DNA of 37,386 bases from Dehalococcoidia bacterium. GTDB lineage: Bacteria > Chloroflexota > Dehalococcoidia > UBA2979. The notes under the pieces are model-generated. The model was not told where the DNA came from and searched no databases. It worked only from the letters and a program-made list of their open reading frames with translations. The position numbers were made by a program, and so were the translations under genes. The first letter of the stretch is position 1. Each line of letters opens with the position of its first letter. The DNA lies in the NCBI GenBank assembly GCA_004297315.1, contig SCTU01000205.1, forward strand, positions 1 through 37,386, in the 5' to 3' direction. Positions 1,726-36,928 of this stretch are shown here, one piece after another.

Positions 1726-1739
1726 AGAACACATGTTCT
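1726..1739. promoter_or_regulatory. LexA operator (Cheo-type SOS box) AGAAC-ACAT-GTTCT
   Basis: Perfect GAAC-N4-GTTC dyad with flanking A/T, 30 nt upstream of the imuB ATG at 1769. GAAC-N4-GTTC is the established LexA box of Gram-positive and Chloroflexi-type lineages, and imuB-dnaE2 cassettes are classical SOS genes. Confidence 0.75.
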
Positions 1740-1768
1740 GGTACCATCCCTCCGCGGGGAGAACCGAG

Positions 1769-2989: not shown

Positions 2990-3288
2990 GCCGCCCGCCC
3001 CAGACCCCGTCCAGTACCTCCCTGCGCCCCATCGGCCTTCCACGCCCGATCGAGGTGCGTGCAGACGGCGACGGCCGGCCGGTCGCCCTCACCCGGACCG
3101 GCACGCGCGGACGACGCGCGGCCGAGACTCCGGTCGAGAGCGTCGAGGAGGTCTGGCGGATTGCCGAGGCATGGTGGCGAGAGGCGCCGCAGGCACGCAC
3201 CTACTACCGCGTCGTCCTCGCGGACGGCCGGCCGCTCTCGATCTTCTACGACGATGCGCTCGGCACCTGGTCCGAGCAGCCGTACTGA
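2986..3288 (+). CDS. Small conserved-looking protein between imuB and dnaE2 (100 aa, WW-x-E...R-x-YYR motif). From memory it resembles ImuB C-terminal or DUF6504-type sequences
   Basis: Same frame as track ORF 2938-3288. The GTG at 2986 overlaps the imuB stop (GTGA), indicating translational coupling. The C-terminal half (VEEVWRIAEAWWREAPQARTYYRVVLADGRPLSIFYDDALGTWSEQPY) has non-random, protein-like composition. It ends 14 nt before the dnaE2 start. Confidence 0.55.
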   Translation: MSRPPQTPSSTSLRPIGLPRPIEVRADGDGRPVALTRTGTRGRRAAETPVESVEEVWRIAEAWWREAPQARTYYRVVLADGRPLSIFYDDALGTWSEQPY

Positions 3289-3302
3289 GCCGGAGGACAG
3301 CG

Positions 3303-7806: not shown

Positions 7807-7808
7807 GC

Positions 7809-8798
7809 CTATGGCACCCTCCCGAACCACTGGACCGTCAACATCGAACCCACGACCAGCAACAGCATGGCAACCCCCGCGAACACCGAGGTGACTTCGG
7901 TGGCCTCTCCACTCGTCGTGAGCTTGAGGTCGATCCTCTTGTAGGTGTCCACGAGCTGTTCTTCGTCCTCGGCACGGAGATAGACGCCGTCGGTCGCGTC
8001 CGCGATCTCCTTCAGAAGCGGCTCGTTCAATGCCGTCGCGATCTGATAGCCGTCCACCGTCAGGATCGCGCCCTCCGGCCGTCCGAGGCCGATCGGGAAC
8101 ACGCGGACGCCGGCATTGGCTGCGACCTCCGCCACGTCGAGCGGGTTGACCCGCGACGTGTGCTCGCCGTCGGACAGCATGACGATCACGGCAGAACCGA
8201 AATATCCGATGTCGAGCGAGAGCAGGTCTTCCTCGGATACGCCTTCGGGGATCGTGAGCGCCTTCCCCGCGATCGCGCCGAGCGACGCGAACATCCCCTC
8301 ACTCAGCGAGGTCCCGCCCTGGACGGAGAGCCGGTCGATCGCGGTCAGGACGTCTTGCTGCACGTCGGTCGGTTGGAGCATGACGAACGCGTTGTCGCTG
8401 AAGGCGACAACGCCGATCTTCACCGTGGACGGCTGCTTGCGGACAAACGCGGTCGCCGCCTGCTTCGCGGCCTCCATCCGTGACGGCTTGAGATCGTCCG
8501 CCTTCATGCTCGTCGAGACATCGAACGCGAGGATGACCGTGCCCTCGAGGTGGGGGATTGCCATGACGACGTTCGGACGCGCCAGCGACAGGAGGAGGAG
8601 TGCGATCGCGACGGCGAAGATGAGCGGCGGCACATGGCGACGGGACAGGAGGCGCCCCCGTGACCTCCCCTCGGTCACCTGCAACCCGAACTGTGCCGCG
8701 GCCGCGCTCCGGCGCCGGACGAGGTGCAGGTATGCCGTCACCAGGAGCGGCACGATCAACAGCGAAAGCAACATCGGAGGCCAGGCGAAGGAGATCAA
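7809..8798 (-). CDS. VWA domain membrane protein (BatA-like)
   Basis: The TTG start at 8798 overlaps the DUF58 stop (TTGA). The N-terminus is MISFAWPPMLLSLLIVPLL, the MIDAS motif is LAFDVSTSM, and there is a C-terminal TM helix. Confidence 0.85.
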   Translation of the reverse strand: MISFAWPPMLLSLLIVPLLVTAYLHLVRRRSAAAAQFGLQVTEGRSRGRLLSRRHVPPLIFAVAIALLLLSLARPNVVMAIPHLEGTVILAFDVSTSMKADDLKPSRMEAAKQAATAFVRKQPSTVKIGVVAFSDNAFVMLQPTDVQQDVLTAIDRLSVQGGTSLSEGMFASLGAIAGKALTIPEGVSEEDLLSLDIGYFGSAVIVMLSDGEHTSRVNPLDVAEVAANAGVRVFPIGLGRPEGAILTVDGYQIATALNEPLLKEIADATDGVYLRAEDEEQLVDTYKRIDLKLTTSGEATEVTSVFAGVAMLLLVVGSMLTVQWFGRVP

Positions 8799-9703
8799 CG
8801 GACTCTCCGCTTTCGTTGACCCGCCATCCGGACGAGTGCGGAGACCAGGTCGTCCTCGGTGGAGATGGCGAACGGGTCGACGCCTGCTCGCCGGAGGGTG
8901 GCGGCCAACCGCTCTTCGCGGGAGCGTGCCGCCTCCGCGAAGCGACGTCGCAAGACCGGGTCGCTTGAGTCCACAAGGACTTGCTCGCCGGTCTCAGAGT
9001 CCTCGAGCACCATGACACCAACGTCGGGGAACTCGACTTCGCGCGGGTCCCAGACCCGGATCGCGACCACGTCGTGGCGACGGCAGAGCAGTGACAGCGG
9101 ACGTTCCCAGCCCGGTTCGCTCAGAAAGTCCGAGACGAGGAAGACCATCGACCGACGCTTGATCGTGTTGAGCCCGGTCTGGATCAGCCCGTTCAAGTCG
9201 GTCGCCGTACGAGTACGTGCCGGGGGATTGAGCAGTTCACGCACCAGCCGCAGCACGTGCCGGCGTCCACCGCCGGGCGGGACGGTCCGCTCGACGACGT
9301 TGTTGTAGAGGATCGCCCCAACGCGGTTGCCACGGCGGGTGAACAGATGCGAGAGCGTCGTCACCAGGTCGACGAGCACGTGGCCTTTCGTGTGCTCATC
9401 CCGGCCGAACGCCATCGATGGCGACCGGTCGAGCAGCATCCACGCGGTCAGTTCGCGGTCCTCGAGGTACTCCCGGACATAGAGCGTGTGCATGCGCGCG
9501 GTGACGTTCCAGTCGATGTACCGCGCGTCATCCTCAGCCTGATACTCACGCAGGTCGGCGAAGTCCACACCCGCCCCGTAGAAGAGCGTGCGGTAGTCGC
9601 CCTGGAGCAAGCCGTCCAGCCGCCGGACGACCTGCCAGTCCAGCCGTCGGAGGACCTGCTCCGGCGTCGGCTCAGCGGCCGCTGGGGACGACATGCGCTC
9701 CAC
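8795..9703 (-). CDS. DUF58 domain protein (MoxR-operon partner)
   Basis: Motifs GDYRTLFYGAGVDFADLREYQAEDDARYIDWNVTAR are typical of DUF58. The start is either GTG 9703 or ATG 9694; both overlap the end of moxR. Confidence 0.85.
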   Translation of the reverse strand: MERMSSPAAAEPTPEQVLRRLDWQVVRRLDGLLQGDYRTLFYGAGVDFADLREYQAEDDARYIDWNVTARMHTLYVREYLEDRELTAWMLLDRSPSMAFGRDEHTKGHVLVDLVTTLSHLFTRRGNRVGAILYNNVVERTVPPGGGRRHVLRLVRELLNPPARTRTATDLNGLIQTGLNTIKRRSMVFLVSDFLSEPGWERPLSLLCRRHDVVAIRVWDPREVEFPDVGVMVLEDSETGEQVLVDSSDPVLRRRFAEAARSREERLAATLRRAGVDPFAISTEDDLVSALVRMAGQRKRRVR

Positions 9704-10694
9704 GCCTGCTTTCGATCAGGGATGCCTCAGGCAGCGGAATGCCCGGCAAGAGCTGCTCGATCACGCCATCAGCGCTGACGTTGGAGGCGAGCGCCTCGTA
9801 TGACAGCACGAGCCGGTGCCGGAGCACGTCGAACACGAGGTCGCGGACATCCTGTGGCAGCGCGTAGTCACGGCCGCGGATGAAGGCGAGGGCACGCCCT
9901 CCCAGGATCAGGTTGATCGACGCGCGCGGGCTGGCGCCGAACTCGATCAGGCGACGGAGGTCGCCCCGGCCTGCCGACTCCGGGTCACGCGTTGCCCGCG
10001 CCAGCCTGACCGCGTACTCCATCAATGCTGGGTCGACGTAGACAGCGTCTGCGGCCCGCTGGAACGCGAGCAACTGCTCGCCGTCGATGATCTGCTGCGT
10101 CGGCTCGAGCGAGCGTGTCATGCGCTCGACGATGACGAACTCCTCGGTCTGAGTGGGGTAGTCCACCAGGACCTTCAGCATGAAGCGGTCCTGCTGCGCC
10201 TCCGGGAGCGCGTACGTGCCCTCCGACTCGATCGGGTTCTGGGTCGCGAGGACGAGGAACGGGTTTGGCACGAGATGGGTCTCGCGGCCAATCGTTACGT
10301 GCCGTTCTTGCATCACTTCGAGCAGCGCGCTCTGCACCTTCGCCGGCGCGCGGTTGATCTCGTCCGCCAGCAGCAGGTTCGTGAACACCGGGCCCAGGGA
10401 GGTCTGGAACTCGCCCAGTTGCTGGTTGTAGATGCGGGTGCCCGTGAGGTCGGCGGGCACGAGGTCAGGTGTGAACTGCACCCGCCTGAAGTCGCCGCCG
10501 ACCGCCGCGGCCAACGTCTTGATCGCCAGCGTTTTGGCCAGGCCCGGCACGCCTTCGACCAGCACGTGGCCACGGGCAAGCAGGGCGACCAGAAGGCGTT
10601 CGAGGAGCGCGTCCTGCCCCACGATGACCTTCTTCATCTCGTACAGCACCTGCTCCATCGGCCGGTAGCTGTTCGACGGCGGTGCCACAGTCAT
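9672..10694 (-). CDS. MoxR-family AAA+ ATPase
   Basis: ORF 9672-10799. I prefer the ATG at 10694 (MTVAPPSNSYRPMEQV...), with GAGGAG upstream. Walker A is GVPGLAKT and Walker B is LLADEINRAP, followed by VLATQNPIE. Confidence 0.9.
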   Translation of the reverse strand: MTVAPPSNSYRPMEQVLYEMKKVIVGQDALLERLLVALLARGHVLVEGVPGLAKTLAIKTLAAAVGGDFRRVQFTPDLVPADLTGTRIYNQQLGEFQTSLGPVFTNLLLADEINRAPAKVQSALLEVMQERHVTIGRETHLVPNPFLVLATQNPIESEGTYALPEAQQDRFMLKVLVDYPTQTEEFVIVERMTRSLEPTQQIIDGEQLLAFQRAADAVYVDPALMEYAVRLARATRDPESAGRGDLRRLIEFGASPRASINLILGGRALAFIRGRDYALPQDVRDLVFDVLRHRLVLSYEALASNVSADGVIEQLLPGIPLPEASLIESRRGAHVVPSGR

Positions 10695-10713
10695 GACCTG
10701 CTCCTCTGATTCG

Positions 10714-11652
10714 TCATCGCTGCAGTCCGCCGGGGCCGCCTGTCCCGGCGAGCGGTACCGCGAACCCGATGCCGGTAAACGAGCGCTCGCTGGCGGCATT
10801 CGCGAGCGCGGTGACGATCCCGATGACCTGCCCGCGCCGGTTCAGGAGCGGACCGCCTGAGCTACCGGGGTTGACTGCGGCGTCGAACTGGATCAGGCCG
10901 GTCAGTTCGAGTGTGCCATGTCCGGGTGGGATCGTGCGGTTCAGGCCGGAGATCACCCCGGCACTGAGCGAGGCGGTGAGGCCAAGCGGGTTCCCGACCG
11001 CGTACGTCTCATCCCCCACCTGCATGCTCCCCGCGAGGACCGCGGGCACGATGAGTTCCGGCCCGGTGTCGGCGTGCAGGACGGCGAGGTCGTTCGGAAG
11101 GACATTGACGACTTCGGCCCTGGACTCGCTGCCGTCTGCGAACCTCACGGTGATAGTGCGTGCGCCGTCGATCACATGGTTCGCCGTGAGGATCATCCCG
11201 TCGGAGCGGACGATCACGCCGCTGCCGATCCCGGGACCGCGGTCGCCTTTCTCGTCGCCCTCCGTCTGGATGTAGACCAGCGATGGGAGGATAGTCTGGT
11301 ACACCTCGGTCGAATTCGGCGGGGCTTCCGCGGCACGCGCGATCGACGTCGCGACGGCCTCGCGGACGTCAGCCCGGGTGATCGGTGCTGGCTCAGGACG
11401 GAATCCTGCAAAGAGGAGGAGACCGGCCAGCGAGCCAAGGAGGCCGAGGGCGAGTGGCGCAAGCCATTTCCAGCCGATCCGGCGGCGTGCACCACGCTCA
11501 CCCGAATCGCTGCTGCGGCCTTGAGGAGTCACGGACGCGTGATGCGGCACGCTGCCGTGTCGCGTGGGCGATCGAGAGCTGCGTGATGCGGTAGAACACA
11601 CGAAAACGCCGGTGACATTGAGTCTCCGCTGCCGTGGTGGGACGGCGATCAT
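10714..11652 (-). CDS. Membrane-anchored trypsin-like serine protease (S1C/HtrA-like, no PDZ domain)
   Basis: Catalytic triad contexts are TANHVI, NDLAVL and GSSGGP. There is one TM segment (WLAPLALGLLGSLAGLLLFAGF). The stop lies 19 nt upstream of the moxR start. The true start is uncertain because the N-terminal tail is Arg/Ser-rich. Confidence 0.8.
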   Translation of the reverse strand: MIAVPPRQRRLNVTGVFVCSTASRSSRSPTRHGSVPHHASVTPQGRSSDSGERGARRRIGWKWLAPLALGLLGSLAGLLLFAGFRPEPAPITRADVREAVATSIARAAEAPPNSTEVYQTILPSLVYIQTEGDEKGDRGPGIGSGVIVRSDGMILTANHVIDGARTITVRFADGSESRAEVVNVLPNDLAVLHADTGPELIVPAVLAGSMQVGDETYAVGNPLGLTASLSAGVISGLNRTIPPGHGTLELTGLIQFDAAVNPGSSGGPLLNRRGQVIGIVTALANAASERSFTGIGFAVPLAGTGGPGGLQR

Positions 11653-25935: not shown

Positions 25936-27144
25936 ATGGACTGGGCAGACACCGCGGACCAGGCGGCTTTCCGAGACGAGGTGCGTGCGCTCATCGGGGA
26001 GCGGCTCCCCGAACGCTACCGCGGCCACCGCGAGGACGCGCACTGGCAGCGGGACCGCCGCTCAGATGATCCCGCGGAGCGCGATGCGGCGATGTCATGG
26101 ACCCGCGCACTCGCGGCTCGAGGCTGGGTCGCCCCCCACTGGCCCAAGGAATACGGCGGCGCGGGGATGACGCCGATGGAGCAGTTCATCTTCAACGAGG
26201 AGATGGCGAAGGCGGGCGCGCCGCTGGCCGCCAGCCTCCACGGCGTCGCCATGCTCGGGCCCACGCTCATCATCCACGGCACGCCCGAGCAACGACAGGA
26301 GCATCTCCCGAAGATCCTCAGTGCCGAGGTGGTGTGGGCGCAGGGGTACTCCGAGCCGGGCGCGGGTTCGGACCTCGCTTCCCTACAGACGCGGGCTGTC
26401 CGCGACGGGGACGAGTACGTGTTGAACGGGCAGAAGATCTGGACCTCGGGCGCGAATACGGCAGACTGGCTCTTCACGATCGTCCGGACCAACCCGGACG
26501 CGCCCAAGCATCGCGGGATCTCGTTCCTGATGGCGGACTTGAAGACCCCGGGGATATCGGTGCGCCCCATCATCAACATGGCATGGGGAGACGACCTGAA
26601 CGAGACCTTCTTCGAGGATGCACGGGTGCCTGTCCGGAACCTCGTCGGCGAGGAGGACCGCGGCTGGTATGTCGGGATGACCCTTCTGGACTTCGAGCGG
26701 TCGGGCATATCGAGCGCCGTCGGGACGCAACGCAGCATCCGCGCGCTCATCGACTACGCGGCCGGAGAGGGCCGGCACCAGTCACGCCTGTCCACGGTCA
26801 CCTCACTCCGGGGCGAAATCGTTGACCGCATGATCGAGTGCGAGGTCTCCTATCAGTTCTCGCTGAGGATTGTTTCGATGCAAAACGCGGGACTCGTGCC
26901 GAACTACGAAGCCTCGTGCGCGAAGCTGTTCAACTCAGAACTCGGACAGCGCATCGCGCGCACCGGCACCAAGGTCTTCGGCCTGTACAGCAACCTGTGG
27001 GCCGGTGACGACGTCAGGAGCCCGATGCGAGGCGCGCACACGCACGCTTATGTCTCGTCGATCCCATCGACGCTGGCAGGAGGATCGAGCGAGATCCAGC
27101 GAAACATCATCGCGACTCGGGGGCTTGGACTGCCTCGGGGCTAG
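25936..27144 (+). CDS. Acyl-CoA dehydrogenase family protein
   Basis: GGAGGAG lies 6 nt upstream of the ATG at 25936. Motifs include QGYSEPGAGSDLASL, KIWTSGANTADW and GGSSEIQRNIIA. Confidence 0.9.
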   Translation: MDWADTADQAAFRDEVRALIGERLPERYRGHREDAHWQRDRRSDDPAERDAAMSWTRALAARGWVAPHWPKEYGGAGMTPMEQFIFNEEMAKAGAPLAASLHGVAMLGPTLIIHGTPEQRQEHLPKILSAEVVWAQGYSEPGAGSDLASLQTRAVRDGDEYVLNGQKIWTSGANTADWLFTIVRTNPDAPKHRGISFLMADLKTPGISVRPIINMAWGDDLNETFFEDARVPVRNLVGEEDRGWYVGMTLLDFERSGISSAVGTQRSIRALIDYAAGEGRHQSRLSTVTSLRGEIVDRMIECEVSYQFSLRIVSMQNAGLVPNYEASCAKLFNSELGQRIARTGTKVFGLYSNLWAGDDVRSPMRGAHTHAYVSSIPSTLAGGSSEIQRNIIATRGLGLPRG

Positions 27145-27240
27145 CGCGAAGCCGCGCCACCCTGACGACGCCCGGCAGCCAGCGCGGCGCCAGCTCTCAA
27201 CACCGAATGCGGCGCGAACCGCGCTCCTCGTGCGTGTTCG

Positions 27241-28071
27241 TCAGGCGGGGCGGCGACGTTCCTCTGTCGCCTGCTCCAGGAACTCATTCCGGCAGCCGCG
27301 TGAGCAGAAGAAGTAGGTGAGCCCATCGCGTTCGCCGTTCACGGCGCGCTCCTGCTCGACGGACATTCCGCACACGGGGTCGGTGGCCATCGTGATCAGG
27401 TCCTTGAATTCGCCGTCCTCGAGCCACAGCACGCGGTCGGCGATGTCTTTGATGCGCTGGTCGTGCGACACGATCACGATGCTGCGGCCCTGCTCCTTCG
27501 CGATGCGGCGCAGCAGGCGCATGATCTCGTGCCCGATCTTCGAGTCGAGGTTCGCCGTCGGCTCGTCGGCGAGGATAAGCGCGGGGTCGTTGGCGAGCGC
27601 GCGCGCGATCGCCACGCGCTGCTTCTCCCCGCCGGACAGTTTCTCGGGCAGGAAGTCGAGGCGGTTGCCAAGGCCAAGGTCGGTCAGCGCGACCGTCGCG
27701 CGCTCGCGCGCTTCGTCTCGTTTCGCCCCCGCCAATTCTGCGACGAGCGCGACGTTCTCCAGCGCCGATAGCGCCGACAGCAGGTTGAAGTCCTGGAAGA
27801 TAAAGCCAAAGCGGGTACGGCGGATCGCCGGGAGTTGACGTTCGTCCAGCGCGGTGAGTTCGAGGCCGTCCAGTTCGATCTTGCCTTCGGTCGGCCGCAA
27901 CAGCGCGCCGAGCATCGATAACAGCGTGGTCTTCCCGGACCCCGACGGCCCCATGATCAGCACCACTTCGCCCTCCGCGACGTCAAGCGAGACGTCGCGT
28001 ACCGCCACGACTTCCGTGGGGCCGGAGCCAAAGCGCTTGCTCACGTGCGAGACTCGCAGGGTGGACGTCAT
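27241..28071 (-). CDS. ABC transporter ATP-binding protein (MacB/LolD-type) with a C-terminal YHS/TRASH metal-binding domain
   Basis: Walker A GPSGSGKT, signature LSGGEKQR, Walker B LILADEPT. The last 49 aa or so (about 27241-27390) read MATDPVCGMSVEQERAVNGERDGLTYFFCSRGCRNEFLEQ, which matches the DPVCGM...YYFCS..C YHS pattern. The ATGA start overlaps the upstream permease stop. Confidence 0.9.
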   Translation of the reverse strand: MTSTLRVSHVSKRFGSGPTEVVAVRDVSLDVAEGEVVLIMGPSGSGKTTLLSMLGALLRPTEGKIELDGLELTALDERQLPAIRRTRFGFIFQDFNLLSALSALENVALVAELAGAKRDEARERATVALTDLGLGNRLDFLPEKLSGGEKQRVAIARALANDPALILADEPTANLDSKIGHEIMRLLRRIAKEQGRSIVIVSHDQRIKDIADRVLWLEDGEFKDLITMATDPVCGMSVEQERAVNGERDGLTYFFCSRGCRNEFLEQATEERRRPA

Positions 28072-29186
28072 CCGGCGCCTCCTTTGAATACGACCGCAGG
28101 GTCGAGGCTCGCGATCTGCCGGATCGGAAGCGCCGCGGAGAGCGCCGCAATCACCAGGGACACTCCAACGGCCTTGAACATTGACGGAGCGCTGATGGCG
28201 AGCGAGATATTCGGCAAGGCGATGGGCACCACCACCGTCAGCAACAGCGTAAGCACGAGCCCCAGCAGGAAACCGGTGACCACGATCGACAGGGCCTGGG
28301 CAACTACCGCGACGTACAGATGGACGTTCCCGGCACCGATGGCCTTCAGCATGCCGTGCTCCGCCCGGCGCGAGAACGTGGCGATGTAGACCGTGAGCGC
28401 CATCACGGCGAGGCCGATCATGAAGCCCACCAGGTTCATGATCGAGCTCACGTCCGTCATCATGTCGTTGACCAGCGCCCGCTCTGCGCGGGCGAAAGCA
28501 TCGCGTGTCTGCGCGGTGGTGCCGGGAGTACTTGCCTCCAGGCGGGCCGCGACCGCCTCAGGAGCGGCGCCAGGGGTGACCTTGACCAGCACATAGCTCA
28601 CCACGGGCGGCCCACCTCGCAACTGGGCGAAGTCCTCGAACGAGACGAATGCGATCGAGTTCGTGAAGTTCGCGGTGCCGCCCGCAAGGCCGCTGATTAT
28701 GAACTCGTGGCCAAGGACCTTCACCCGGTCACCAATCCCCACGCCCGCATCCTCCGCCACCACGCGGTCGATGATCGCCTCGCCCCGACCGGGGATGGAC
28801 TTGCCGGCTGCGATGCGCCAGGGCCCGCCCATCGTCGCGTCGGCGGGCAGTCCGATGATGTAGGCGGCGTGCCGCCCCTCGCCGACCTCGACCATGTTGG
28901 AGAGGTAGAGGATCGGTGTGACCGAGTCGACGTCCGGCAGCCCGCGCAACTCCTCCACGACGGCCGCGGGAAGCGTGGACGTCGCCATGTGCATGTTCCG
29001 CACGCCTGCTTGCGACACGAAGACATCCGCGCCCGACTCCCGCATATACGCGGTGAGACGGCGCTGCGCGCCCTCGACGATCGCGTCAAAGGAGAAGATC
29101 AAGGTGAACGCGAGAGCGACACCGCCGAGCGAAACGGCGAGACGCGCCTTGTTCTGGAGTAGATTGCGGAGCGCGTATCGGAGCAT
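28068..29186 (-). CDS. ABC transporter permease, FtsX/MacB-type (372 aa)
   Basis: N-terminus MLRYALRNLLQNKARLAVSLGGVALA, a large extracytoplasmic domain, and three C-terminal TM helices, typical of FtsX-family permeases. Confidence 0.85.
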   Translation of the reverse strand: MLRYALRNLLQNKARLAVSLGGVALAFTLIFSFDAIVEGAQRRLTAYMRESGADVFVSQAGVRNMHMATSTLPAAVVEELRGLPDVDSVTPILYLSNMVEVGEGRHAAYIIGLPADATMGGPWRIAAGKSIPGRGEAIIDRVVAEDAGVGIGDRVKVLGHEFIISGLAGGTANFTNSIAFVSFEDFAQLRGGPPVVSYVLVKVTPGAAPEAVAARLEASTPGTTAQTRDAFARAERALVNDMMTDVSSIMNLVGFMIGLAVMALTVYIATFSRRAEHGMLKAIGAGNVHLYVAVVAQALSIVVTGFLLGLVLTLLLTVVVPIALPNISLAISAPSMFKAVGVSLVIAALSAALPIRQIASLDPAVVFKGGAG

Positions 29187-29190
29187 CGCG

Positions 29191-30309
29191 TCAGCCTCGG
29201 AAGACGTCGGCGGGTGCCAGCCGCGCGATGAGCCACGCTGGCGCGATTGACGCGAGCACTGCGATCAGAAGGCCGCTCCCGAGACTGGCCGCCACCGTGG
29301 TCGCCTCGACGACTACGAGGAATTGCGGCCGAAGCGCCATGATCAACTGCCCCGCCCCGGCGGCAAGCAAGACGCCAAGTGCGGCCCCGACCAGGGTTGT
29401 GACCAGTGCCTGCGTCGCGACGAGCAGGTAGAGCGTCCTGTTCTCCGCGCCGATCGCCTTGAGCACGCCGTACTCGCGTCGCCGCTCCACTGCCGCCGTG
29501 TAGATCACCAGGCCGACGACCAGCGTGCCGACGAAGAAGGCAATCGTGACCATCAACAGGATCGGGGCGTTGAAGAGCTTCCCCATGAGCGCCTCGTCGT
29601 TGGCGATCATCTGCCTCTTCGACAACGAGTTCGTCCCGGGCACGTCGCGCAGCCGCCCGAGGAGCGCCACGTCCGATGACCCTCGAGCGGGCTCAACGAA
29701 CAGGAAGCTGGCTGTACCGGGAGACACCGACAAGAGGCCTTCGAGGGCGCCCTTCCGGACGAAGAGGTAGTCGACCACGAAGCTGCTGGTCCCGCGCGAG
29801 AGCCCGACGAGTGTGAACGTGCGTCCAAGGAGTGAGAAGCGGTCTCCGACGTGCATGCCGTGACGGCTGGCAAGGACCCGGTCAAAGACGGCTTCATCGT
29901 CCGCAGCCGGGACGCGCCCTTCGCTCAGAAACCACGGTCCGCCGCCGCGCTCTGTCTCATAGCCGATGAGGTACACAGGCTGCTTACGGCCGTGGAGGTC
30001 GAGGATGGCAAACTGCGCGAGGACCGGCGTTACGCGGGCGACGCCATCGATGCGCTGGACAGCCTCATCCGTCCCTGCGGGCAACAGTGAGGTGGTCGCG
30101 AGCAGGTTGCCCACACCCTGCTGAGCCACAACGATCGAGCCGGGCATATGTTCCTGGTAAAGGCCCACCTGGCGGTACATCCCGCCTCGCAGCCCGCTGA
30201 GCAGCACCACGAGCGTCACGGCGAGCGCGACGCCTGCCACACTCAGCCCCAGGCGGGTCCGATTCCGGAGCAGGTTCCGGCTCGCCACGAACAACGTGCG
30301 ACTCGTCAT
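29191..30309 (-). CDS. ABC transporter permease, FtsX/MacB-type (372 aa, paralog of the adjacent gene)
   Basis: N-terminus FVASRNLLRNRTRLGLSVAGVALA with the same architecture. GGAGG lies directly upstream of the ATG at 30309. Confidence 0.85.
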   Translation of the reverse strand: MTSRTLFVASRNLLRNRTRLGLSVAGVALAVTLVVLLSGLRGGMYRQVGLYQEHMPGSIVVAQQGVGNLLATTSLLPAGTDEAVQRIDGVARVTPVLAQFAILDLHGRKQPVYLIGYETERGGGPWFLSEGRVPAADDEAVFDRVLASRHGMHVGDRFSLLGRTFTLVGLSRGTSSFVVDYLFVRKGALEGLLSVSPGTASFLFVEPARGSSDVALLGRLRDVPGTNSLSKRQMIANDEALMGKLFNAPILLMVTIAFFVGTLVVGLVIYTAAVERRREYGVLKAIGAENRTLYLLVATQALVTTLVGAALGVLLAAGAGQLIMALRPQFLVVVEATTVAASLGSGLLIAVLASIAPAWLIARLAPADVFRG

Positions 30310-30318
30310 CCTCCTGAT

Positions 30319-30336
30319 ACTACAGCGTGAAGTAGG
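30319..30336. promoter_or_regulatory. Dyad ACTAC-N8-GTAGG (CTAC-N8-GTAG), candidate BlaI/CopY-family operator
   Basis: ACTACAGCGTGAAGTAGG lies 10 nt upstream of the SD/start of the FtsX-FtsX-ATPase operon, in the region divergent to the Met-rich protein gene. A degenerate copy (CTACTACGGTATGTCGTGG) is at 30456-30474. Confidence 0.45.
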
Positions 30337-30530
30337 TCACCACGGAATCTGGGGCGTTCGCCCCATCTGACGATGTGGCACAGGTAGGCGAACGTCCTCC
30401 TCTTCAAAGGACTTAGGCCCACGCATCAGCCGGTGACAGTGTGCGACGATGTCATCTACTACGGTATGTCGTGGCCTTGCCTCGACACCCGCGCCCTGTG
30501 GGCGCGCGTTCTGGCTGAAAGAGGTGACCC

Positions 30531-30920
30531 ATGGACACACGTGCCCGCGCGATCGTCGGCGTCCTCGGGGCGACGGTCATCGTCCTGGCCGTTGCGCTGG
30601 TCGTGGTGATCGCCCGCGACGATGACGGCAGCACCGCCATGCACGGAGGCACCACGACCCCCTCGATGGGCATGATGCGGGCCATGGGCAACATGGACTC
30701 TGACGCCATGCTCACCCACATGCGCGATGTGCTGGGCAATGACGGATACCAGCGCATGCTCAAGCACATGCAGGGACACCGCGCGGGCGGGCCGATGGCA
30801 GGCGATCCGGCCATCGACGGGATGATGCACCAGATGATGGACGGGATGATGCAGCAGATGCCGGACGACAGCGGCGGCATGATGCCGCGCGCCACTGGCA
30901 CACCGACGGCGACACGCTAG
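30531..30920 (+). CDS. Membrane-anchored Met/His-rich protein (putative extracytoplasmic Cu(I)-binding protein)
   Basis: AAGAGG lies upstream of the ATG. There is one N-terminal TM helix (IVGVLGATVIVLAVALVVVIA). By my count the following 98 residues or so contain about 20 Met and several His, in MxxM / MM / HM clusters (GMMRAMGNMDSDAMLTHM, DGMMHQMMDGMMQQM). Confidence 0.7.
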   Translation: MDTRARAIVGVLGATVIVLAVALVVVIARDDDGSTAMHGGTTTPSMGMMRAMGNMDSDAMLTHMRDVLGNDGYQRMLKHMQGHRAGGPMAGDPAIDGMMHQMMDGMMQQMPDDSGGMMPRATGTPTATR

Positions 30921-31177
30921 CCTCGGCCGGCTGAGGCATGGAGACACCTCGAGTGGACGCGAGGACGACGGACGTCGAAGCCCCCCGGCAGATTTGCCCG
31001 GACAGCAGCCGTCGCAATCCTGCCTTTGAACGCGTCTCGGCCCGCTCCGTCGAAGCCTTCGTGACGGAACAGGGGTTGTTGGACCTCGGCGGCATCCGAG
31101 CAGCCTCACTGGACGCAGCGAGGAACTGACCGTCCGTACGGCTCAGCCGGCTGCGTGACCCTGCAGTCGTGGCCGGG

Positions 31178-33325
31178 TCAGGCCACTTTCTTCCGCTTCA
31201 GTAGTGCGGAATTCACGATGACCGACAGCGAACTAAGGGCCATCGCGGCCGCCGCGATGATGGGGTTGAGCAGGCCGATTGCCGCGACGGGGATCGCTGC
31301 GCTGTTGTAGGCGAGCGCCCAGAACAGGTTCTGTTTGATCTTGAGCATCGTCGCGCGAGAGAGGCGAATGCTCGTCACGACGTCACGCACATCGTCCTTG
31401 ATCAGGATGATGCCGCCCGTCTCTTTGGCCACGTCCGACCCGGACCCGATGGCTATGCCGATGTCGGCGGTCGCGAGGGCGGGCGCGTCGTTCACGCCGT
31501 CCCCGACCATCGCGACGACCTCGCCCGTACGCTGCATCCCGCGGATGACCTCGGCCTTATCCGCCGGCAGGACCTCGGCGATGACACGCTCGATCCCGAG
31601 CTCCGCAGCGATCGCCTGCGCCGTCCGCGGGTTGTCGCCGCTGAGCATCACGATGCCGATCCGGTCCTGGCGCAGGGCGTCGATGGCTTCGCGCGCCTCG
31701 GGTTTGATCGTGTCGGCGACGGCGATGATACCCGCGAGTACGCCGTCGACCGCGAGTAGCATCGCAGTCTTGCCCTGCACCTCGAGGCCGGCCATGGTCT
31801 TCTCGGCCGCGGCGGGATCAATGCCCTCGCGGGTCAGCAGGCGCCGGTTCCCCATCAGGATCGCGTGGCCGTCGCCGCTCCCACGGATCCCGTGCCCCGC
31901 GATGGCCTCGAAGCCGGACACGGCGGGCACATCCAGCCCGCGGTGCGTCGCCGCCTGGACGATGGCGCGCGCGAGCGGATGCTCGGAGCCGGCCTCCACC
32001 GCAGCGGCGAAGCGGAGCAGGTCCTGCTCGGAGACGCCGGCCAGCGGCACGACGTCGGTCACGGCGGGTTCGCCTCGCGTCAAGGTGCCTGTCTTGTCGA
32101 ATACCACCGTGGTGATCTTCTGCGCGCGCTCGAGGATTTCGGCGCCCCGGATCAGGATCCCGGCGTCGGCGGCCTTGCCGACGCCGACCATCAGAGCCGC
32201 TGGGGTGGCAATGCCGAGCGCGCAAGGACAGGCGATGATCAGGACGGCGACAAAGGCGAGCAGCCCCTTCGGGAACTCACCGGCGATCCACCACCCGCCG
32301 AACGCCAGCACAGCGATGCCCACGACGGCGGGGACGAAATACTGCACCACCTGGTCAGCGAGGCGCTGCACCTGTGCCGTGCTCGACTGCGCCTCTTCGA
32401 CCAGGCGCACGATCTGCGCGAGCGCGGTGTCCGAGCCGATCCGCGTCGCCCGGACCCGCAGCATGCCGGTCTGGTTGAGCGTGCCGCCGATCACCGAGCC
32501 ACCCTCGGCCTTTTCGACAGGCATCGACTCACCGGTCAGCATCGACTCGTCGACGGCCGAACGCCCCTCGACGACCGTGGCGTCGGTCGCGATCTTCTCG
32601 CCCGGCCGCACGACGAGGACTTCGTCGACCATGATCGACTCTGCCGGGATCTCTACCTCGGCCCCGTCGCGGACGACGTGTGCCGTCGCCGGCCGCAGGT
32701 CCATCAGCTTTCGGACGGCCGCCGAGGAGCGCGTCTTGATGACCTCCTCCATGTACTTGCCAAGTAGCACGAAGGCGATGATCACCGCCGAGACTTCAAA
32801 GTAGACGTCTCGTTCCTCGATGGACACCGGCAGCACGCGCGGGAAGAACACCACAAAGACGCTATAGACGTACGCCGTCGTCGTGCCGAGGGCGATGAGG
32901 AAGTCCATGTTGATGTTGCGGGTCCGGATCGCCGTCCAACTGCCCTTGTAGAAGGACCAGCCGCCAATGAACTGGACGGGCGTGACGAGGATGAACAGCC
33001 AGCGGCCCCACGTGAACCATGGCAACGCCGGGATCGGCGCCCAGGTCACAATGGTCGCGCCGGCCGCGAGCGCGATGAAGGCGCCGGCTCGGAGGATGGC
33101 GATGGCGACCACGCCGGTCAGCGCGATCGTGACGCGCCTCCGCATCGCCTTGATCTCAGTCTCGGGCGATTCGAAGGTGCGCAGACAGGTCGGGCTGCAG
33201 AAGTAGTAGGTGCGGCCGTTGCGCTCGGCGGTGAGCGCCGTCGACTTCTCGATCACCATGCCGCAGATCGGATCTTTCGCCATCCCGCTCGCGGCAGGCG
33301 GTGACTGCACCGGCGAGATGGTCAT
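31178..33325 (-). CDS. copA: Copper-translocating P1B-type ATPase with an N-terminal YHS/TRASH domain
   Basis: Motifs [24 protein letters not shown] and GDGVNDAP. The N-terminus reads [36 protein letters not shown] (a YHS pattern). No GMxCxxC HMA motif is visible. Confidence 0.92.
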
Positions 33326-33413: not shown

Positions 33414-33560
33414 TCATTTCTTGATGTACCGCCCCGGGTCCTGCTGGAACTGACGCGCACACGAGTCACTACAGAAGTAGTACGTCTTGCCTTGCCACTC
33501 AGTCGACGCCGCGGCCGACTTGGGCTCCACATTCATCCCGCAGACAGGATCACGCGCCAC
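33414..33560 (-). CDS. 48-aa stand-alone YHS/TRASH domain protein (not in the ORF track)
   Basis: My translation from the GTG at 33560 is (M)ARDPVCGMNVEPKSAAASTEWQGKTYYFCSDSCARQFQQDPGRYIKK*. The start is 3 nt after the SHOCT gene stop, with GGAAGGGA upstream. Confidence 0.7.
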   Translation of the reverse strand: MARDPVCGMNVEPKSAAASTEWQGKTYYFCSDSCARQFQQDPGRYIKK

Positions 33561-33563
33561 CGC

Positions 33564-33833
33564 TCACCGTCCCTTCCCGCGTTCGGGCTGCTCGCCGAGG
33601 TCTGCGACGATCTGCAGATAGCGCTCGCGGTCGAGGTCACCTCTCGCGTAAGCGCGGCGGGCGATCTCCAATGCGTCATGGTCGGGAGGGGGCGGTGGCG
33701 GCGCGTCGTGACGGCGCCCGAGTTGCGTGGCGATCCACCACCCACCGATCAACAGCGGCAGCCACATGACTGCCATCATGAAGGTCATCCAGAGCCACGC
33801 CCAGCCGCCGAAATCGCCATTCCAATACCACAT
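33564..33833 (-). CDS. SHOCT-domain membrane protein (89 aa)
   Basis: Track ORF 33564-33914. I prefer the ATG at 33833 (MWYWNGDFGGWAWLWMTFMMAVMWLPLLIGGWWI), with GGAG 7 nt upstream. It has a poly-Pro linker and then ALEIARRAYARGDLDRERYLQIVADL, a SHOCT-like C-terminal motif. Confidence 0.65.
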   Translation of the reverse strand: MWYWNGDFGGWAWLWMTFMMAVMWLPLLIGGWWIATQLGRRHDAPPPPPPDHDALEIARRAYARGDLDRERYLQIVADLGEQPERGKGR

Positions 33834-33855: not shown

Positions 33856-33873
33856 CCTACAGGCCATAGTAGT
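33856..33873. promoter_or_regulatory. Dyad CCTAC-N8-GTAGT (CTAC-N8-GTAG), candidate BlaI/CopY-family operator
   Basis: CCTACAGGCCATAGTAGT lies 23 nt upstream of the SHOCT ATG, in the 106-bp gap after doxX. It is positioned to control SHOCT-YHS-copA. Confidence 0.45.
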
Positions 33874-33939: not shown

Positions 33940-34632
33940 TCAGCTGGCATTGTGACGCCACGTCGCCCCGGTCGTGACGATCAGCGCCAGTACGGCCATT
34001 GCTGCCCAAGTCTCCGCCCCCGAAACCGCCAGGGCGAGCGCTGCGGCGGCGAGCAACGCGAGCACGAAGAGCATCTCGTGCCCCAGCCGCTTTACCTGTC
34101 CCGGCAGACGGGCCGCCGCCCATGGGACCCCCCAACCGTCGAGGCCGAACCGGCCCGCGTGATGGCCAAAGAACGCCAGCGCGAGGCCCAGGAGCAGCAT
34201 CGGCGGGTTGGTGGACGTCGTCCCAGCCCAGACAAAGGCGAGGTTCATGGTCACGCCGGCGAGCGCGGAGAATCGCGTGAGCAGCCCCACAATCAGGGCG
34301 ATCCCCACGAGAAGCTCGCCGTAGGTGACCAGCACCGCGAGCAACGTCGCGTTCGGAAGAAAGACCTCCTGGACGAGCGTGTGGTACCAGTGCGGGACCT
34401 CCGGATGCGGCCCCGCGGTCGACTTTGCGATCGCGCCCTGCAGGAATCCGCTGATCGCCTTGCCTCGCGGCTCCGCCGTCCAGCCGGGGTCGTCGAGCTT
34501 CTCCCACCCCGCGCGGACCCAGGACACTCCGAGCACGAGGCGAATGAACAGCCACGCCCCGGCCTCGAACCGCCACAGCGACGGCCGTGCGGGCGCCCCG
34601 ACGCTCCCGGTAGGTGCCGGGTGAGGCCTCAC
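33940..34632 (-). CDS. DoxX-family membrane protein
   Basis: The GTG start overlaps the upstream stop (GTGA). The multi-TM profile includes LFIRLVLGVSWVRAGWEKL and LVTYGELLVGIALIVGLLTRFSALAG, typical of DoxX/DoxD. Confidence 0.8.
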   Translation of the reverse strand: MRPHPAPTGSVGAPARPSLWRFEAGAWLFIRLVLGVSWVRAGWEKLDDPGWTAEPRGKAISGFLQGAIAKSTAGPHPEVPHWYHTLVQEVFLPNATLLAVLVTYGELLVGIALIVGLLTRFSALAGVTMNLAFVWAGTTSTNPPMLLLGLALAFFGHHAGRFGLDGWGVPWAAARLPGQVKRLGHEMLFVLALLAAAALALAVSGAETWAAMAVLALIVTTGATWRHNAS

Positions 34633-35036
34633 GGTGCCACCGTGCCCGAGGCGCCCAGCCCTTCGTGCCCGGGATGGTCCGTCGAGTGCGCCTCGGGCTC
34701 CGCGAGCCGCTCGCGGATGGCCGGGCCAACCCAGACCGTCGAGACGGTGAACAAGATGGCGAACACGAGCACGGCAATGCCCGGTGCGACCCAGGTGCCG
34801 AAACGACGCCGAAGTCGCAGTAGCGACGGCACCATGAGGAGCAGCCCGATCGCACCAAACACCACGGTGCCGGTGAGCCCCGAGACCACGGCGGCACCAG
34901 CGATTGGGCCAACGTGGTGAAGGACGTGCGGGGCGATCCCGCTCGCTGCCCCGATGGCCCCCGCCAGTGCGACGCGGAGCCGGACTCCGGGGCCGCGTCG
35001 TGGGACCGTGTCCAGCGTGCGTGCGGTGATGCTCAT
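34629..35036 (-). CDS. Hypothetical membrane protein with HVLHHVGP and C-terminal His-rich motifs
   Basis: Track ORF 34629-35102. I prefer the ATG at 35036 (MSITARTLD...). About four TM helices are predicted by eye. It carries an H-x2-HH motif at the first TM helix and the tail EAHSTDHPGHEG. I do not recognise a family. Confidence 0.5.
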   Translation of the reverse strand: MSITARTLDTVPRRGPGVRLRVALAGAIGAASGIAPHVLHHVGPIAGAAVVSGLTGTVVFGAIGLLLMVPSLLRLRRRFGTWVAPGIAVLVFAILFTVSTVWVGPAIRERLAEPEAHSTDHPGHEGLGASGTVAP

Positions 35037-35157
35037 GCGGAGCCTCGTCGACCGAACGAGCCGACCTCGATGGACCGGACCGCCTGATCCTACACGAACC
35101 ACGACCGTCGGTAGTAGTTGTGCGACGATCGCGAAGCAGAAGTCAGAGAGGCCGCAA

Positions 35158-35964
35158 CTAACCGAGATGGGGGCAGGCGACGCAGAAGATACCGGTCCAG
35201 ATCAGCGCATGGGCGAGGAGGGGCAGTCCGAACAGCCCCGCGAATACCGGCGCCGCCTGCCGCTCGCTGACGAGAGGCGGGGTCTCAGGCTGCGCGAGCC
35301 ATGCCAGCCGCTCAGCCGTGCCGACGCCGGACAACGCTGCCCCACCCGCCGCGACGCCTGCCGCGCCGACGATGGCCTCGAACAGGTCTTCGCGTCTGGC
35401 GCCCGCCGCGAGGGCCGCGCTGTCGGCGCGCCACTCCATCTCAATCCTCAGGCTGCTGAACAGGCGCCGCGCGCCGGGGAATGCGCCGACGGCGGCTTCC
35501 GCGAGGGAGACCAGCGCCAGCCAACGCACGTCATGGTGGGACATATGCGCCCGTTCGTGCAGCAGCGCAGCATGCAACGCCCCGGCATCGAGCGTTTGCT
35601 CGGCGCCAGCCGTTGCGTAGATCACGGGCTGCCGGAGGCCGGCCGTGAAGAGCGCCACCTGGGTGCCGGGCACACTGACGTAGCGGACACCTCCGGAACT
35701 CTGCGGCAGGCCCTGCCGTGTGAGTGCCGTGAGACAACGCTCGGCGACTATCCAGCGGACCGCCCCGCGCCCGAGGCCGATGAGGGGCAGAAGGGAGACC
35801 GCGCCCAGCACGGACAATGGGATGAGATCGAGGTGCGCTCCGAGATGTGGTGCGGCGCCAGAATGGGATGCGACCGCGGGGGCGAGCATGTGGGCAAAGG
35901 CGAGCGGGAACGCGACTCCGCCGAGGACCGCGACGGCCAGTGTCGCGCGCGCGCCGGTACTCAC
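35158..35964 (-). CDS. M56-family (BlaR1/MecR1-like) membrane zinc metalloprotease lacking an extracellular sensor domain
   Basis: The GTG start overlaps the repressor stop (GTGA). The HEXXH motif is LLHERAHMSHHD. The protein is 268 aa with TM helices. The N-terminal His cluster is AHMLAPAVASHSGAAPHLGAHLD and the extreme C-terminus is IFCVACPHLG. Confidence 0.8.
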   Translation of the reverse strand: MSTGARATLAVAVLGGVAFPLAFAHMLAPAVASHSGAAPHLGAHLDLIPLSVLGAVSLLPLIGLGRGAVRWIVAERCLTALTRQGLPQSSGGVRYVSVPGTQVALFTAGLRQPVIYATAGAEQTLDAGALHAALLHERAHMSHHDVRWLALVSLAEAAVGAFPGARRLFSSLRIEMEWRADSAALAAGARREDLFEAIVGAAGVAAGGAALSGVGTAERLAWLAQPETPPLVSERQAAPVFAGLFGLPLLAHALIWTGIFCVACPHLG

Positions 35965-36344
35965 CGCCGCATCCTCAGTTTCGACCGAAGCGTGGCGACC
36001 ATCTGCGGGTCGAGGCGGTTCGCCTCCGCGAGAAATGCTCCGACGCCGGCGGTGCCGAGGTCGACCAGGACGGCGGCGAGGGATTCGGCGCGACGTTCGG
36101 CGAACTCCTCGCGCGTCATCGCGGGAGCATAGAGGTGGCTCCGTCCGCCGGCACGCCGCACGACGAGCCGTTTTACCGTGAGCCGTTGAAGCACCGTCAA
36201 GATCGTGGTGTAGGAGAGGCCACGCGGCGTCCCCACGCGCTCGTAGGTCGCCGGGGTTGAGAGTTCACCCTCGTCCCAGAGTGCGTCCAGCACAGCGGCT
36301 TCCAGTTCGCCCAGTGGTTGAAGAGGGTTCCGCTTTCGTGCCAT
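35961..36344 (-). CDS. BlaI/MecI/CopY-family winged-helix transcriptional repressor (no cysteines)
   Basis: LGELEAAVLDALWDEGELSTPATYERVG...LSYTTILTVLQRLTVKRLVVRR is typical of the penicillinase-repressor family. It is 127 aa, contains no Cys, and lacks the CopY C-terminal CxCx4CxC motif. Confidence 0.85.
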   Translation of the reverse strand: MARKRNPLQPLGELEAAVLDALWDEGELSTPATYERVGTPRGLSYTTILTVLQRLTVKRLVVRRAGGRSHLYAPAMTREEFAERRAESLAAVLVDLGTAGVGAFLAEANRLDPQMVATLRSKLRMRR

Positions 36345-36383: not shown

Positions 36384-36401
36384 ACTACGACAGCACGTAG
36401 T
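36384..36401. promoter_or_regulatory. Dyad ACTACG-N6-CGTAGT (CTAC-N8-GTAG), candidate autoregulatory BlaI/CopY-family operator
   Basis: Perfect 6-bp inverted repeat ACTACGacagcaCGTAGT, 40 nt upstream of the repressor ATG (36344) and 51 nt upstream of the cupredoxin GTG (36452). Confidence 0.5.
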
Positions 36402-36451: not shown

Positions 36452-36928
36452 GTGCCGGCAGTCATATTGCGGCGCGTCTCCCTCGTCGCTTCGCTCGTGG
36501 CCGCCGCCCTGGTCGCCGCCTGCGCGGGCAGCGACCAGGGCGGCGGCGCAGGTTCGTCTGCTTCCAGCGCCAGTCTGGTCACGGTTGTGGCAACGGATCT
36601 CGCGTTTGAGCCTCGAGAGGTCCGCATCGCCGCTGACCAGCGCGTGAGCGTGCGGCTCAAGAACAAGGGGAAGGTTCTCCACGACTGGACCATCGAGCGC
36701 ATCCCAGTGACCGGAGTCGAGATGCGAGCGTCCGATAACCATGCGATGGAGCCTGGCGGCGGCATGGTGTCCGGGAGCGCAGGCCCTGGTGAGCTGCACA
36801 TCGCCGCCGAGGTGGGCCGAACGGCGCAGATCACCTTCACACCGAAACAGCCCGGCGAGTACGTCTTCTACTGCACGGTGGCCGGCCATCGGCAGGCAGG
36901 GATGCAAGGCAGGCTGGTCGTCGGATGA
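36452..36928 (+). CDS. Cupredoxin (type-1 blue copper) lipoprotein
   Basis: GGAAGGA lies 7 nt upstream of the GTG at 36452. The lipobox is LVAACAG. The copper ligand pattern is H (VLHDW) ... C-x4-H-x4-M (FYCTVAGHRQAGM). Confidence 0.85.
   Translation: MPAVILRRVSLVASLVAAALVAACAGSDQGGGAGSSASSASLVTVVATDLAFEPREVRIAADQRVSVRLKNKGKVLHDWTIERIPVTGVEMRASDNHAMEPGGGMVSGSAGPGELHIAAEVGRTAQITFTPKQPGEYVFYCTVAGHRQAGMQGRLVVG

Follow-up and report, generated by a model that had tools for sequence, protein, structure and literature searches.

What does a metal-binding domain do at the C-terminus of a MacB-type ATP-binding cassette (ABC) ATPase? The question is raised by an operon at positions 27,241 to 30,309 of a 37,386-nucleotide stretch of Dehalococcoidia bacterium DNA (contig SCTU01000205.1; the whole stretch is referred to here as the window), in which two paralogous permease genes are followed by the gene for an ATPase that ends in a YHS/TRASH domain. 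This ABC-YHS system is a conserved three-gene Type VII (MacB/FtsX-fold) machine belonging to copper-resistance islands. In the reading favoured here, which is given a probability of about 0.5, Cu(I) bound to the YHS tails would control dimerisation of the ATPase, driving work outside the membrane, with co-regulation of the machine and the copper ATPase CopA. The three open reading frames (ORFs) are co-directional on the minus strand and lie exactly at the coordinates given in an earlier sequence-only reading of this DNA. They encode permease 1 (372 aa; 30309..29191) and its paralog permease 2 (372 aa; 29186..28068), both of the FtsX/MacB_PCD type by Pfam, and the 276-residue ATPase with its YHS tail (28071..27241), likewise identified by Pfam. 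A gap of 4 nt separates the two permease genes, while permease 2 and the ATPase overlap by 4 nt (ATGA), the start codon of the ATPase lying on the stop codon of permease 2.

The tail comprises the last ~45 residues of the ATPase, with the YHS/TRASH domain at residues ~228-266 (27274..27390, minus strand). The YHS family PF04945 matches residues 230-266 at an E-value of 3.8e-10; its 40.1 bits exceed the gathering score of 30.3. The tail sequence, D231-P-V-C234-G-M236 ... C256-S-R-G-C260, fits the TRASH pattern D-x2-C-x21-C-x3-C (general form C-x19-22-C-x3-C), the cysteines being spaced C234-x21-C256-x3-C260. It contains the peptide quoted in the sequence-only reading, DPVCGMSVEQERAVNGERDGLTYFFCSRGCRNEF, and the YHS/TRASH identity claimed there is borne out by the above-threshold hidden Markov model (HMM) match and the full ligand pattern. 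Among 42 homologues there is no variation at D231, P232, C234, M236, C256 or C260, and in a set of 82 sequences these positions are 98-100% conserved; the residues beyond ~266 vary freely across homologues. D231, C234, C256 and C260, perhaps with M236, are the proposed metal ligands. In the AlphaFold 2 (AF2) model the tail folds into short strands (228-255) and a helix (258-273) at a predicted local distance difference test score (pLDDT) of 77-90, and it directly follows the last hairpin (strands 213-218 and 221-226) of the nucleotide-binding domain (NBD), so that there is almost no linker between the two. The tail alone finds marginal matches in the PDB to ribosomal protein L24e, the TRASH prototype (E 0.09-0.9); these fit a TRASH ancestry and, taken alone, are no evidence for it. 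Within the window a YHS domain is encoded three times, as the ATPase tail, as the N-terminus of CopA and as a free 48-aa protein; in an alignment the three share 18 invariant columns, among them the D, C-G-M and C-S-x2-C positions with all the putative ligands. Some homologous ATPases carry two tandem YHS domains (P0016, P0017, P0060 and P0090). The ATPases P0035 and P0059 display instead a C-terminal extension of ~100 residues that is not YHS.

The same residues could serve another purpose. The tail might be a structural zinc-ribbon-like (treble-clef/TRASH) module that holds a permanent Zn(II) and promotes dimerisation or docking, for example to CopA or a different protein of the island, with no sensing involved. 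A conserved set of three cysteines is equally expected of such a structural site; TRASH is related to L24e, in which the same cysteines bind structural metal, and the YHS domain of toluene-4-monooxygenase has neither a bound metal nor a known regulatory role (PMC4626032). This explanation is nevertheless considered rather improbable, because the association with copper genes is strong and phylogenetically broad, the CGM motif with its invariant Met236 is typical of soft-metal sites, and one YHS domain has been shown experimentally to switch in a Cu-specific manner (PMC4626032).

The fusion is not rare, as the sequence-only reading had implied, but widespread among environmental bacteria, and it occurs mostly in copper-gene neighbourhoods; cluster, genome and remote-homologue searches all exclude the idea of a rare fusion. 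In a 5.8-billion-protein collection, all 120 of the best 120 clusters examined combine ABC_tran (PF00005) with YHS (PF04945), at 73-94% identity. A pattern-limited genome scan, with one genome per species, confirmed close relatives of the ABC-YHS ATPase in at least 174 species genomes. From these, 80 loci (L002-L081) were kept, and the tblastn comparison, which covered 81 loci, detected the YHS tail in 79. A frameshift, gene-fusion or assembly artefact is thus ruled out, since over 100 independent clusters, as well as these loci, contain the same uninterrupted ORF. Nearly all of the 80 kept loci belong to Chloroflexota metagenome-assembled genomes (MAGs) of the Anaerolineae, Limnocylindria, Ktedonobacteria and Chloroflexia; outside this phylum, the Actinomycetota contribute a single MAG and the Thermaceae four loci, among them those of two cultured strains, Meiothermus hypogaeus DSM 23238 and Calidithermus chliarophilus DSM 9957. 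Every related locus whose contig extends over both permeases has the gene order permease 1-permease 2-ATPase. Identity of the NBD is 71-82% across Chloroflexota, Thermaceae and Actinomycetota, and that of the permeases is mostly 45-61%; the high identity of the ATPase may reflect either an unusually strong constraint on the NBD or a recent horizontal spread of the module. Residues 170-276 of the ATPase, searched against 1.84 billion cluster representatives, retrieved 345 proteins at E ≤1e-10, many of which span the NBD/YHS junction, and full-length fused ATPases persist at 45-61% identity over these C-terminal 107 residues. One of the fused lineages in this range, P0186, again displays the trio of two permeases and a YHS-bearing ATPase, with HMA, DsbD, MerR, thioredoxin and P-type ATPase genes as neighbours. 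A fused homologue, 55% identical, is also carried by the Rhodococcus sp. WAY2 plasmid pRWAY03 (L001), where it is surrounded by a BlaI/M56 pair, DUF305, TlpA, CcdA/ResB/CcsB, Lgt and Lnt. Relatives that have no tail lie on Methylosinus and Nitratidesulfovibrio (N. vulgaris) plasmids, accompanied by an adaptor, in Methylosinus also by TolC, and by genes that have no metal connection.

The core of the ATPase is of the MacB type. ABC_tran matches residues 25-173 (E 2e-35), and the Walker A (GPSGSGKT, 41-48), signature (LSGGEKQR, 145-152), Walker B (LILADE, 165-170) and H-loop (H203) motifs are invariant in the 42 homologues, as expected of a Type VII NBD. The best NCBIfam matches are DevA, MacB, LolD and FtsE, none of which reaches its curated cut-off, and the closest PDB sequences are MJ0796, Spr0694 and MacB; none of the best PDB matches of the NBD aligned past residue 230. 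The AF2 model (pLDDT 88) superposes on the E. coli MacB NBD with a template modelling (TM) score of 0.94, normalised to the MacB domain, a root-mean-square deviation (rmsd) of 1.5 Å and 42% identity. Profiles, PDB sequence matches and Foldseek thus agree with the MacB/LolD-type ATPase that had been proposed from the letters.

Similarly, the claim of two paralogous 372-aa FtsX-type permeases agrees with the Pfam matches and with a mutual identity of 33% (E 1e-53). Permease 1 and permease 2 match MacB_PCD at E 4e-11 and 2e-19 and FtsX at E 1e-15 and 4e-11, respectively, all above the Pfam cut-offs, and match the DevC, MacB, YbbP and LolCE models of NCBIfam weakly. Both proteins display by hydropathy one N-terminal transmembrane helix, a loop of ~200 aa and a C-terminal hydrophobic block in which three further transmembrane helices are expected. 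The AF2 model of permease 2 (pLDDT 77) consists of long helices at 13-50, 228-271, 288-323 and 333-359 and a mixed alpha/beta domain at 55-227. In Foldseek it matches MacB, LolE/LolC, YbbP, Spr0695 (TM score 0.64) and HrtB (TM score 0.60-0.64), at an identity that is always ≤19%. Pfam, hydropathy, AF2 and Foldseek together therefore give the permeases the four transmembrane helices and the large extracytoplasmic domain (Porter with or without Sabre) of Type VII systems. The extracytoplasmic domains contain conserved, paralog-specific residues. In permease 1, His106 and His150 are conserved in 97% and 94% of 69 sequences. In permease 2, an N-M/L-H-M motif that contains His66 (100%) and Met67 (99%) is located in the loop just past the first strand of the extracytoplasmic domain. 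These outer-domain His and Met residues recur in Meiothermus and even in the distant L083 system. The conservation analysis of the homologues revealed no conserved Cys and no CPC-like motif in the transmembrane helices.

By these profiles and models, the ABC-YHS system is of Type VII (MacB fold) and lies outside every characterised subfamily. Membership of LolCDE was rejected on scores (LolD TIGR02211, 212 bits against a cut-off of 308; lolCE TIGR02212, 20.8 and 19.0 against 362), while the gene organisation is that of LolCDE, with two different permeases and one, presumably homodimeric, ATPase, both permeases being kept in every related locus that covers them. DevBCA was rejected similarly (DevA, 243.6 bits against 295.8; DevC, 44.9 and 35.2 against 290), and no gene for a DevB-type fusion protein was found in the operon or among its recurrent neighbours. 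MacAB-TolC does not apply either: the NBD is encoded by a separate gene, the MacB equivalog model gives 214 bits where 966 are required, and no adaptor or TolC gene was found. A membrane-fusion or TolC partner is absent both from the window operon and from the gene families that recur in at least 6 related loci. The MetN/ModC/MalK class was rejected as well, the tail being YHS rather than ACT-like or TOBE and the partner permeases being of the FtsX rather than the importer type.

The surroundings of the operon explain why copper is the metal considered. The copper context is supported by a YHS-bearing CopA with a CPC motif, a free YHS protein, a Met-rich protein, a cupredoxin and a common operator. 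Divergent from the operon, on the plus strand, lies the gene for a 129-aa Met/His-rich protein (30531..30920) that has no Pfam match and, by hydropathy, one N-terminal transmembrane or signal segment (3-34); it is probably an extracytoplasmic Cu(I) binder. The P1B-1 copper ATPase CopA follows (715 aa; 33325..31178, minus strand). It scores 587 bits with TIGR01511 and 635 bits with TIGR01525, both over the cut-offs, and its N-terminal YHS domain occupies residues 17-55 (E 4e-10). A free-standing 48-aa YHS protein with a GTG start (33414..33560, minus strand; PF04945, E 1.8e-16) is possibly a Cu chaperone, and an 89-aa small membrane protein whose translation ends in a SHOCT-like C-terminal tail is encoded at 33564..33833 on the same strand. 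The latter has no Pfam match at E ≤0.001; its 85-aa analogue in related loci has a SHOCT match (E 4e-9). Both small genes lie upstream of copA and fall under or near the usual ORF length cut-off, the stop codon of the SHOCT-like gene being 3 bases from the start of the YHS gene. Further to the right of the CopA group are DoxX, a BlaI-family repressor with an M56 protein, a cupredoxin (36452..36928, plus strand) and a cytochrome c, and to the left of the operon lie unrelated acyl-CoA and peptide-transport genes.

Outside the window, secreted Met-rich ORFs were found by composition in about a dozen related loci, and BLAST of the window Met-rich protein, the M56 protein and a 157-aa protein against the 80 genome loci gave no matches. 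The 157-aa protein is hydrophobic, has no Pfam match and is encoded between the M56 gene and DoxX (34629-35102, minus strand); in L090 a 162-aa gene occupies the equivalent position beside an M56-like gene. A small HMA-domain protein is encoded directly upstream of permease 1 in ~20-30 loci. The HMA protein of L027 (5516-5770; E 1.5e-9), a locus like these ~20-30 others, displays the loop GLGCGGAG instead of the usual GMTCxxC and is left with a single Cys. Elsewhere in the window, ImuB-like (IMS family) and DnaE2-like polymerase genes (1733-6689) are followed by a MoxR/DUF58/VWA-BatA cluster (6739-10799), a gene content from which the window is taken to be chromosomal and not plasmid-borne.

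A shared control element ties these genes together. The sequence-only reading had placed an island-specific dyad upstream of the operon; the dyad is real and is one of only three sites of its kind in the window. The pattern CTAC-N8-GTAG occurs exactly 3 times in the 37 kb, against 0.08 expected, and 3 or more copies arose in 0 of 100 shuffles. A general repeat search missed the dyad, its arms being only 4 nt long, and the pattern search with shuffles detected it. The first copy, CTACAGCGTGAAGTAG (30320-30335), adjoins the AGGAGG ribosome-binding site of permease 1 (30310-30315), the second (33857-33872) lies upstream of the SHOCT-like, YHS and CopA genes, and the third (36385-36400) lies between the repressor gene and the cupredoxin gene. 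In L088, a 94% identical relative, an identical dyad is positioned 11 bases ahead of the permease 1 start. The dyad is probably the operator of the BlaI-family repressor and would thus link the ABC, YHS-CopA and BlaI/M56 genes. A scan of 27000-31200 for consensus promoters and terminators revealed no promoter-like site, and terminators were no commoner than in shuffles. A second element, CTACTACGGTATGTCGTGG or its reverse complement, is present at 30465-30485 of the window and at 7615-7640 of L090, in both cases within the spacer that separates the ABC operon from the divergent Met-rich gene.

The repressor itself (127 aa; 35961..36344, minus strand; Penicillinase_R, E 8e-20) contains no Cys and is therefore BlaI/MecI-like rather than a direct Cu sensor of the CopY type, as CopY is described in PMC11672702. 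Its presumed partner is the M56 (BlaR1-like) membrane metalloprotease encoded next to it (35158..35964, minus strand), which matches Peptidase_M56 at E 2e-6 and 27.5 bits, below the gathering score of 31. The pairing is also annotated on Rhodococcus pRWAY03, and in L090 a Penicillinase_R gene stands beside an unannotated 270-aa gene in the equivalent position. The Cys-free repressor and its M56 neighbour suggest that the copper island is controlled by a proteolytic, BlaR1-style signal rather than by CopY-style binding of Cu.

How the machine might work can be outlined from its fold. MacB-fold transporters act by mechanotransmission, and the solved members have no transmembrane substrate path (PMC5985334). 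By its fold, the ABC-YHS machine would act by mechanotransmission as well. In the favoured reading the two paralogous permeases would pair as a heterodimer, as LolC and LolE do, served by two copies of the ATPase, so that two YHS domains would lie beneath the ATPase dimer. Cytoplasmic Cu(I), or Ag(I), would load the tails either directly or via the free 48-aa YHS protein, and the metal-loaded tails would promote closure of the ATPase domains, so that ATP would be turned over only when the cytoplasm sees copper. With no route for a substrate through the membrane in MacB-fold pumps, the ATP cycle would pass through the stalk helices to the extracytoplasmic domains, and for the same reason a metal domain in the cytoplasm makes most sense as a sensor. 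The outer domains, with His66-Met67 of permease 2 and His106 and His150 of permease 1, would then expel Cu(I) or hand it off on the outer side of the membrane to acceptors such as secreted Met-rich proteins or cupredoxins. The machine would in this way complement CopA, which empties the cytoplasm, and its transcription would be derepressed jointly with that of CopA through the action of the BlaI/M56 pair on CTAC-N8-GTAG. Copper gating of the ATPase, which the sequence-only reading had proposed, is plausible.

The tail could alternatively be a station for metal transfer rather than a switch, in the manner of the N-terminal metal-binding domains of P1B ATPases, taking Cu(I) from a chaperone (the free YHS protein or an HMA protein) and feeding a transporter that exports cytoplasmic copper. 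A YHS domain of the same type is found at the N-terminus of CopA and the free 48-aa YHS gene lies alongside; the small HMA proteins are encoded directly upstream of permease 1 where they occur, and the copy number of the tail varies, as it does in P1B ATPases. Such a route would, however, require a path that the fold does not offer, since the ATPase and the permease both have the MacB fold, whose solved members lack a transmembrane substrate channel (PMC5985334). The near-linkerless tail at the far end of the NBD would also have little freedom to reach an entry site at the membrane, and the transmembrane helices, as described above, lack conserved Cys or CPC-like motifs. Metal transfer by the tail is on these grounds unlikely. 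Among the substrates that the sequence-only reading had proposed, cytoplasmic metal is the least likely, because MacB-fold transporters carry no substrate across the membrane (PMC5985334).

What the machine does outside the membrane is open to a different answer, for which the genes recurring around it are informative. Neighbourhoods were counted in the 41 loci of at least 14 kb, for genes within 8 kb. A P1B ATPase, a small HMA protein or a cupredoxin is present in 32 of them; other recurrent neighbours are an OmpR/histidine-kinase pair, Lgt, a CcdA/DsbD-like membrane protein, a putative lipoprotein and M23 peptidases. Extra copies of Lgt (prolipoprotein diacylglyceryl transferase) within 8 kb of the ABC-YHS trio (for example L049 10874-12109 and L050 11054-11860) hint at a link of copper stress to lipoprotein maturation. 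Copper-gated or not, the machine could thus maintain the envelope under copper stress, either by a LolCDE-like extraction or release of lipoproteins whose maturation is blocked by copper or by an FtsEX-like activation of a cell-wall hydrolase. Two different permeases and one ATPase are the LolCDE layout; Lgt paralogues are found in 16 of the 41 large loci (24 of 80 overall) and M23 peptidases in 9, a conserved putative lipoprotein is found in 14, and pRWAY03 has two Lgt genes and Lnt beside its homologue (L001 11404-14262). The LolCE, LolC and FtsX models, on the other hand, score far under their cut-offs, Lgt and M23 each occur in a minority of loci, and the conserved His and Met residues of the outer domains suit a metal better than an acyl chain. 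Moreover, most host lineages (Chloroflexota and Actinomycetota) are regarded as single-membrane bacteria, in which a Lol pathway has no destination. Envelope maintenance is accordingly held to be as improbable as a purely structural zinc site.

Several observations weigh against the copper-gated reading. About a fifth of the large loci have no P1B ATPase, HMA protein or cupredoxin within 8 kb. L090, an 81% relative, has the same island content as the window and three dyads, and none of these stands exactly in front of the permease genes. The ABC module apparently can work in a copper-island context without the tail: on a Thermococcus peptonophilus plasmid (L087, 5878-7735) a related one-permease ABC pair with no YHS tail is surrounded by two P1B ATPases, a TRASH-domain protein, a CcdA-like protein and a SHOCT protein. 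Since this tail-less archaeal pair sits in a metal island, the tie of the ABC module to such islands is independent of the fusion. The conserved His and Met residues of the outer domains could be purely structural. Whether copper would activate or inhibit the ATPase is a guess, and a meeting of the two tails, or a joint His/Met site, is supposition.

The copper-gated reading, if true, would show how the metal status of the cytoplasm can be coupled to ATP-driven action outside the membrane, and would give models of bacterial copper resistance one more component. A broader proposal is more tentative and is held with less confidence than the copper-gated reading itself: beside P1B ATPases and Cus-type RND pumps there may be a further energised copper-defence machine, a MacB-fold ABC system that reads cytoplasmic Cu(I) through its YHS tails and works outside the membrane, where it may clear Cu(I) from the outer face, load Met-rich or cupredoxin sinks, or rescue lipoprotein maturation blocked by copper. 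To our knowledge, YHS/TRASH domains are common on copper proteins, yet almost no biochemistry exists on them, and the established roles of MacB-fold ABC machines concern antibiotics, lipoproteins, haem and cell division, not metals. The ABC-YHS family, which occurs in Chloroflexota, Thermaceae and Actinomycetota copper islands, joins the two. As a ligand-gated mechanotransmission ABC transporter it would also offer a tractable system for learning what YHS domains do, and its cultured hosts, Meiothermus hypogaeus, Calidithermus chliarophilus and the Rhodococcus sp. WAY2 plasmid, make the family testable.

Common as the fusion is, no characterisation of it was found in the literature, whether in a metal or a non-metal role: a full-text search returned no paper on the ABC-YHS fusion or on this ABC family in metal homeostasis. 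The first half of a 2024 review of bacterial metallostasis does not mention YHS, TRASH or MacB, the P. furiosus CopR paper reports no copper-induced ABC system, and a review of MacB mentions neither copper nor a C-terminal extension (PMC5985334). Source annotations are generic, for example 'ABC transporter ATP-binding protein'. The domain combination itself is no discovery, because it is already visible in precomputed Pfam annotations; the novelty lies in seeing it as a conserved and probably copper-gated Type VII ABC module that belongs to copper islands.

Among known systems, the MacB/Type VII superfamily (MacB, LolCDE, HrtBA, Spr0693-0695, YbbAP and FtsEX) resembles the ABC-YHS machine in the superposition of the NBD and in the MacB_PCD and FtsX permeases with their large outer domain, and LolCDE resembles it further in having a separate ATPase and two non-identical permeases. 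In contrast, the ABC-YHS permeases are ≤19% identical to the solved members, every equivalog HMM scores below its cut-off, there is no adaptor or TolC, and only the ABC-YHS ATPase carries a metal-binding domain, which the compared Type VII members do not. The MetN and ModC ATPases, invoked in the sequence-only reading as models of ligand gating, remain useful in one respect, as they too carry after the NBD a ligand-binding domain able to control closure, and the MetN NBDs match the ATPase model in Foldseek over its first ~225 residues. The likeness ends there and is one of function only: MetN, ModC and MalK are importers under trans-inhibition, their ACT-like or TOBE regulatory folds are unrelated to TRASH, and the Foldseek alignments that extend past the NBD have an rmsd of 7.1 Å.

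The N-terminal YHS and HMA domains of P1B ATPases belong to the same family and display the same ligand motif, as on the CopA encoded 3 kb away, and their copy number also varies; they differ in being N-terminal rather than C-terminal and in serving another transporter class, which moves the metal through the membrane, an activity not known for the MacB fold. In Campylobacter jejuni, the predicted ABC transporter FetBCD is encoded by two permease genes (fetB and fetC) and an ATPase gene (fetD) beside the YHS-bearing membrane protein FetA (PMC10783030). By description only, this metal-related cluster of unknown mechanism likewise joins two permeases, one ATPase and a YHS domain, but FetA, not the ATPase, bears the YHS domain, for which a periplasmic location is predicted, and the role of the cluster is iron uptake (PMC10783030). 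The class IIIc adenylyl cyclase of Mycobacterium phlei is activated specifically by Cu, through a C-terminal YHS domain that sits on an 8-residue linker (Linder 2015, PMC4626032). Its output domain is a cyclase and not an ABC ATPase, Cu2+ was the ion used in vitro, and no membrane machine is involved (PMC4626032). As in the ABC-YHS ATPase, however, the YHS domain is C-terminal and follows, after a very short linker, a nucleotide-handling domain that is active only as a dimer, and its proposed ligands, one Asp and three Cys, are the four that are invariant in the ABC-YHS tail. By analogy, the M. phlei cyclase is thus the closest precedent for copper gating of the ATPase, and a better one than MetN or ModC.

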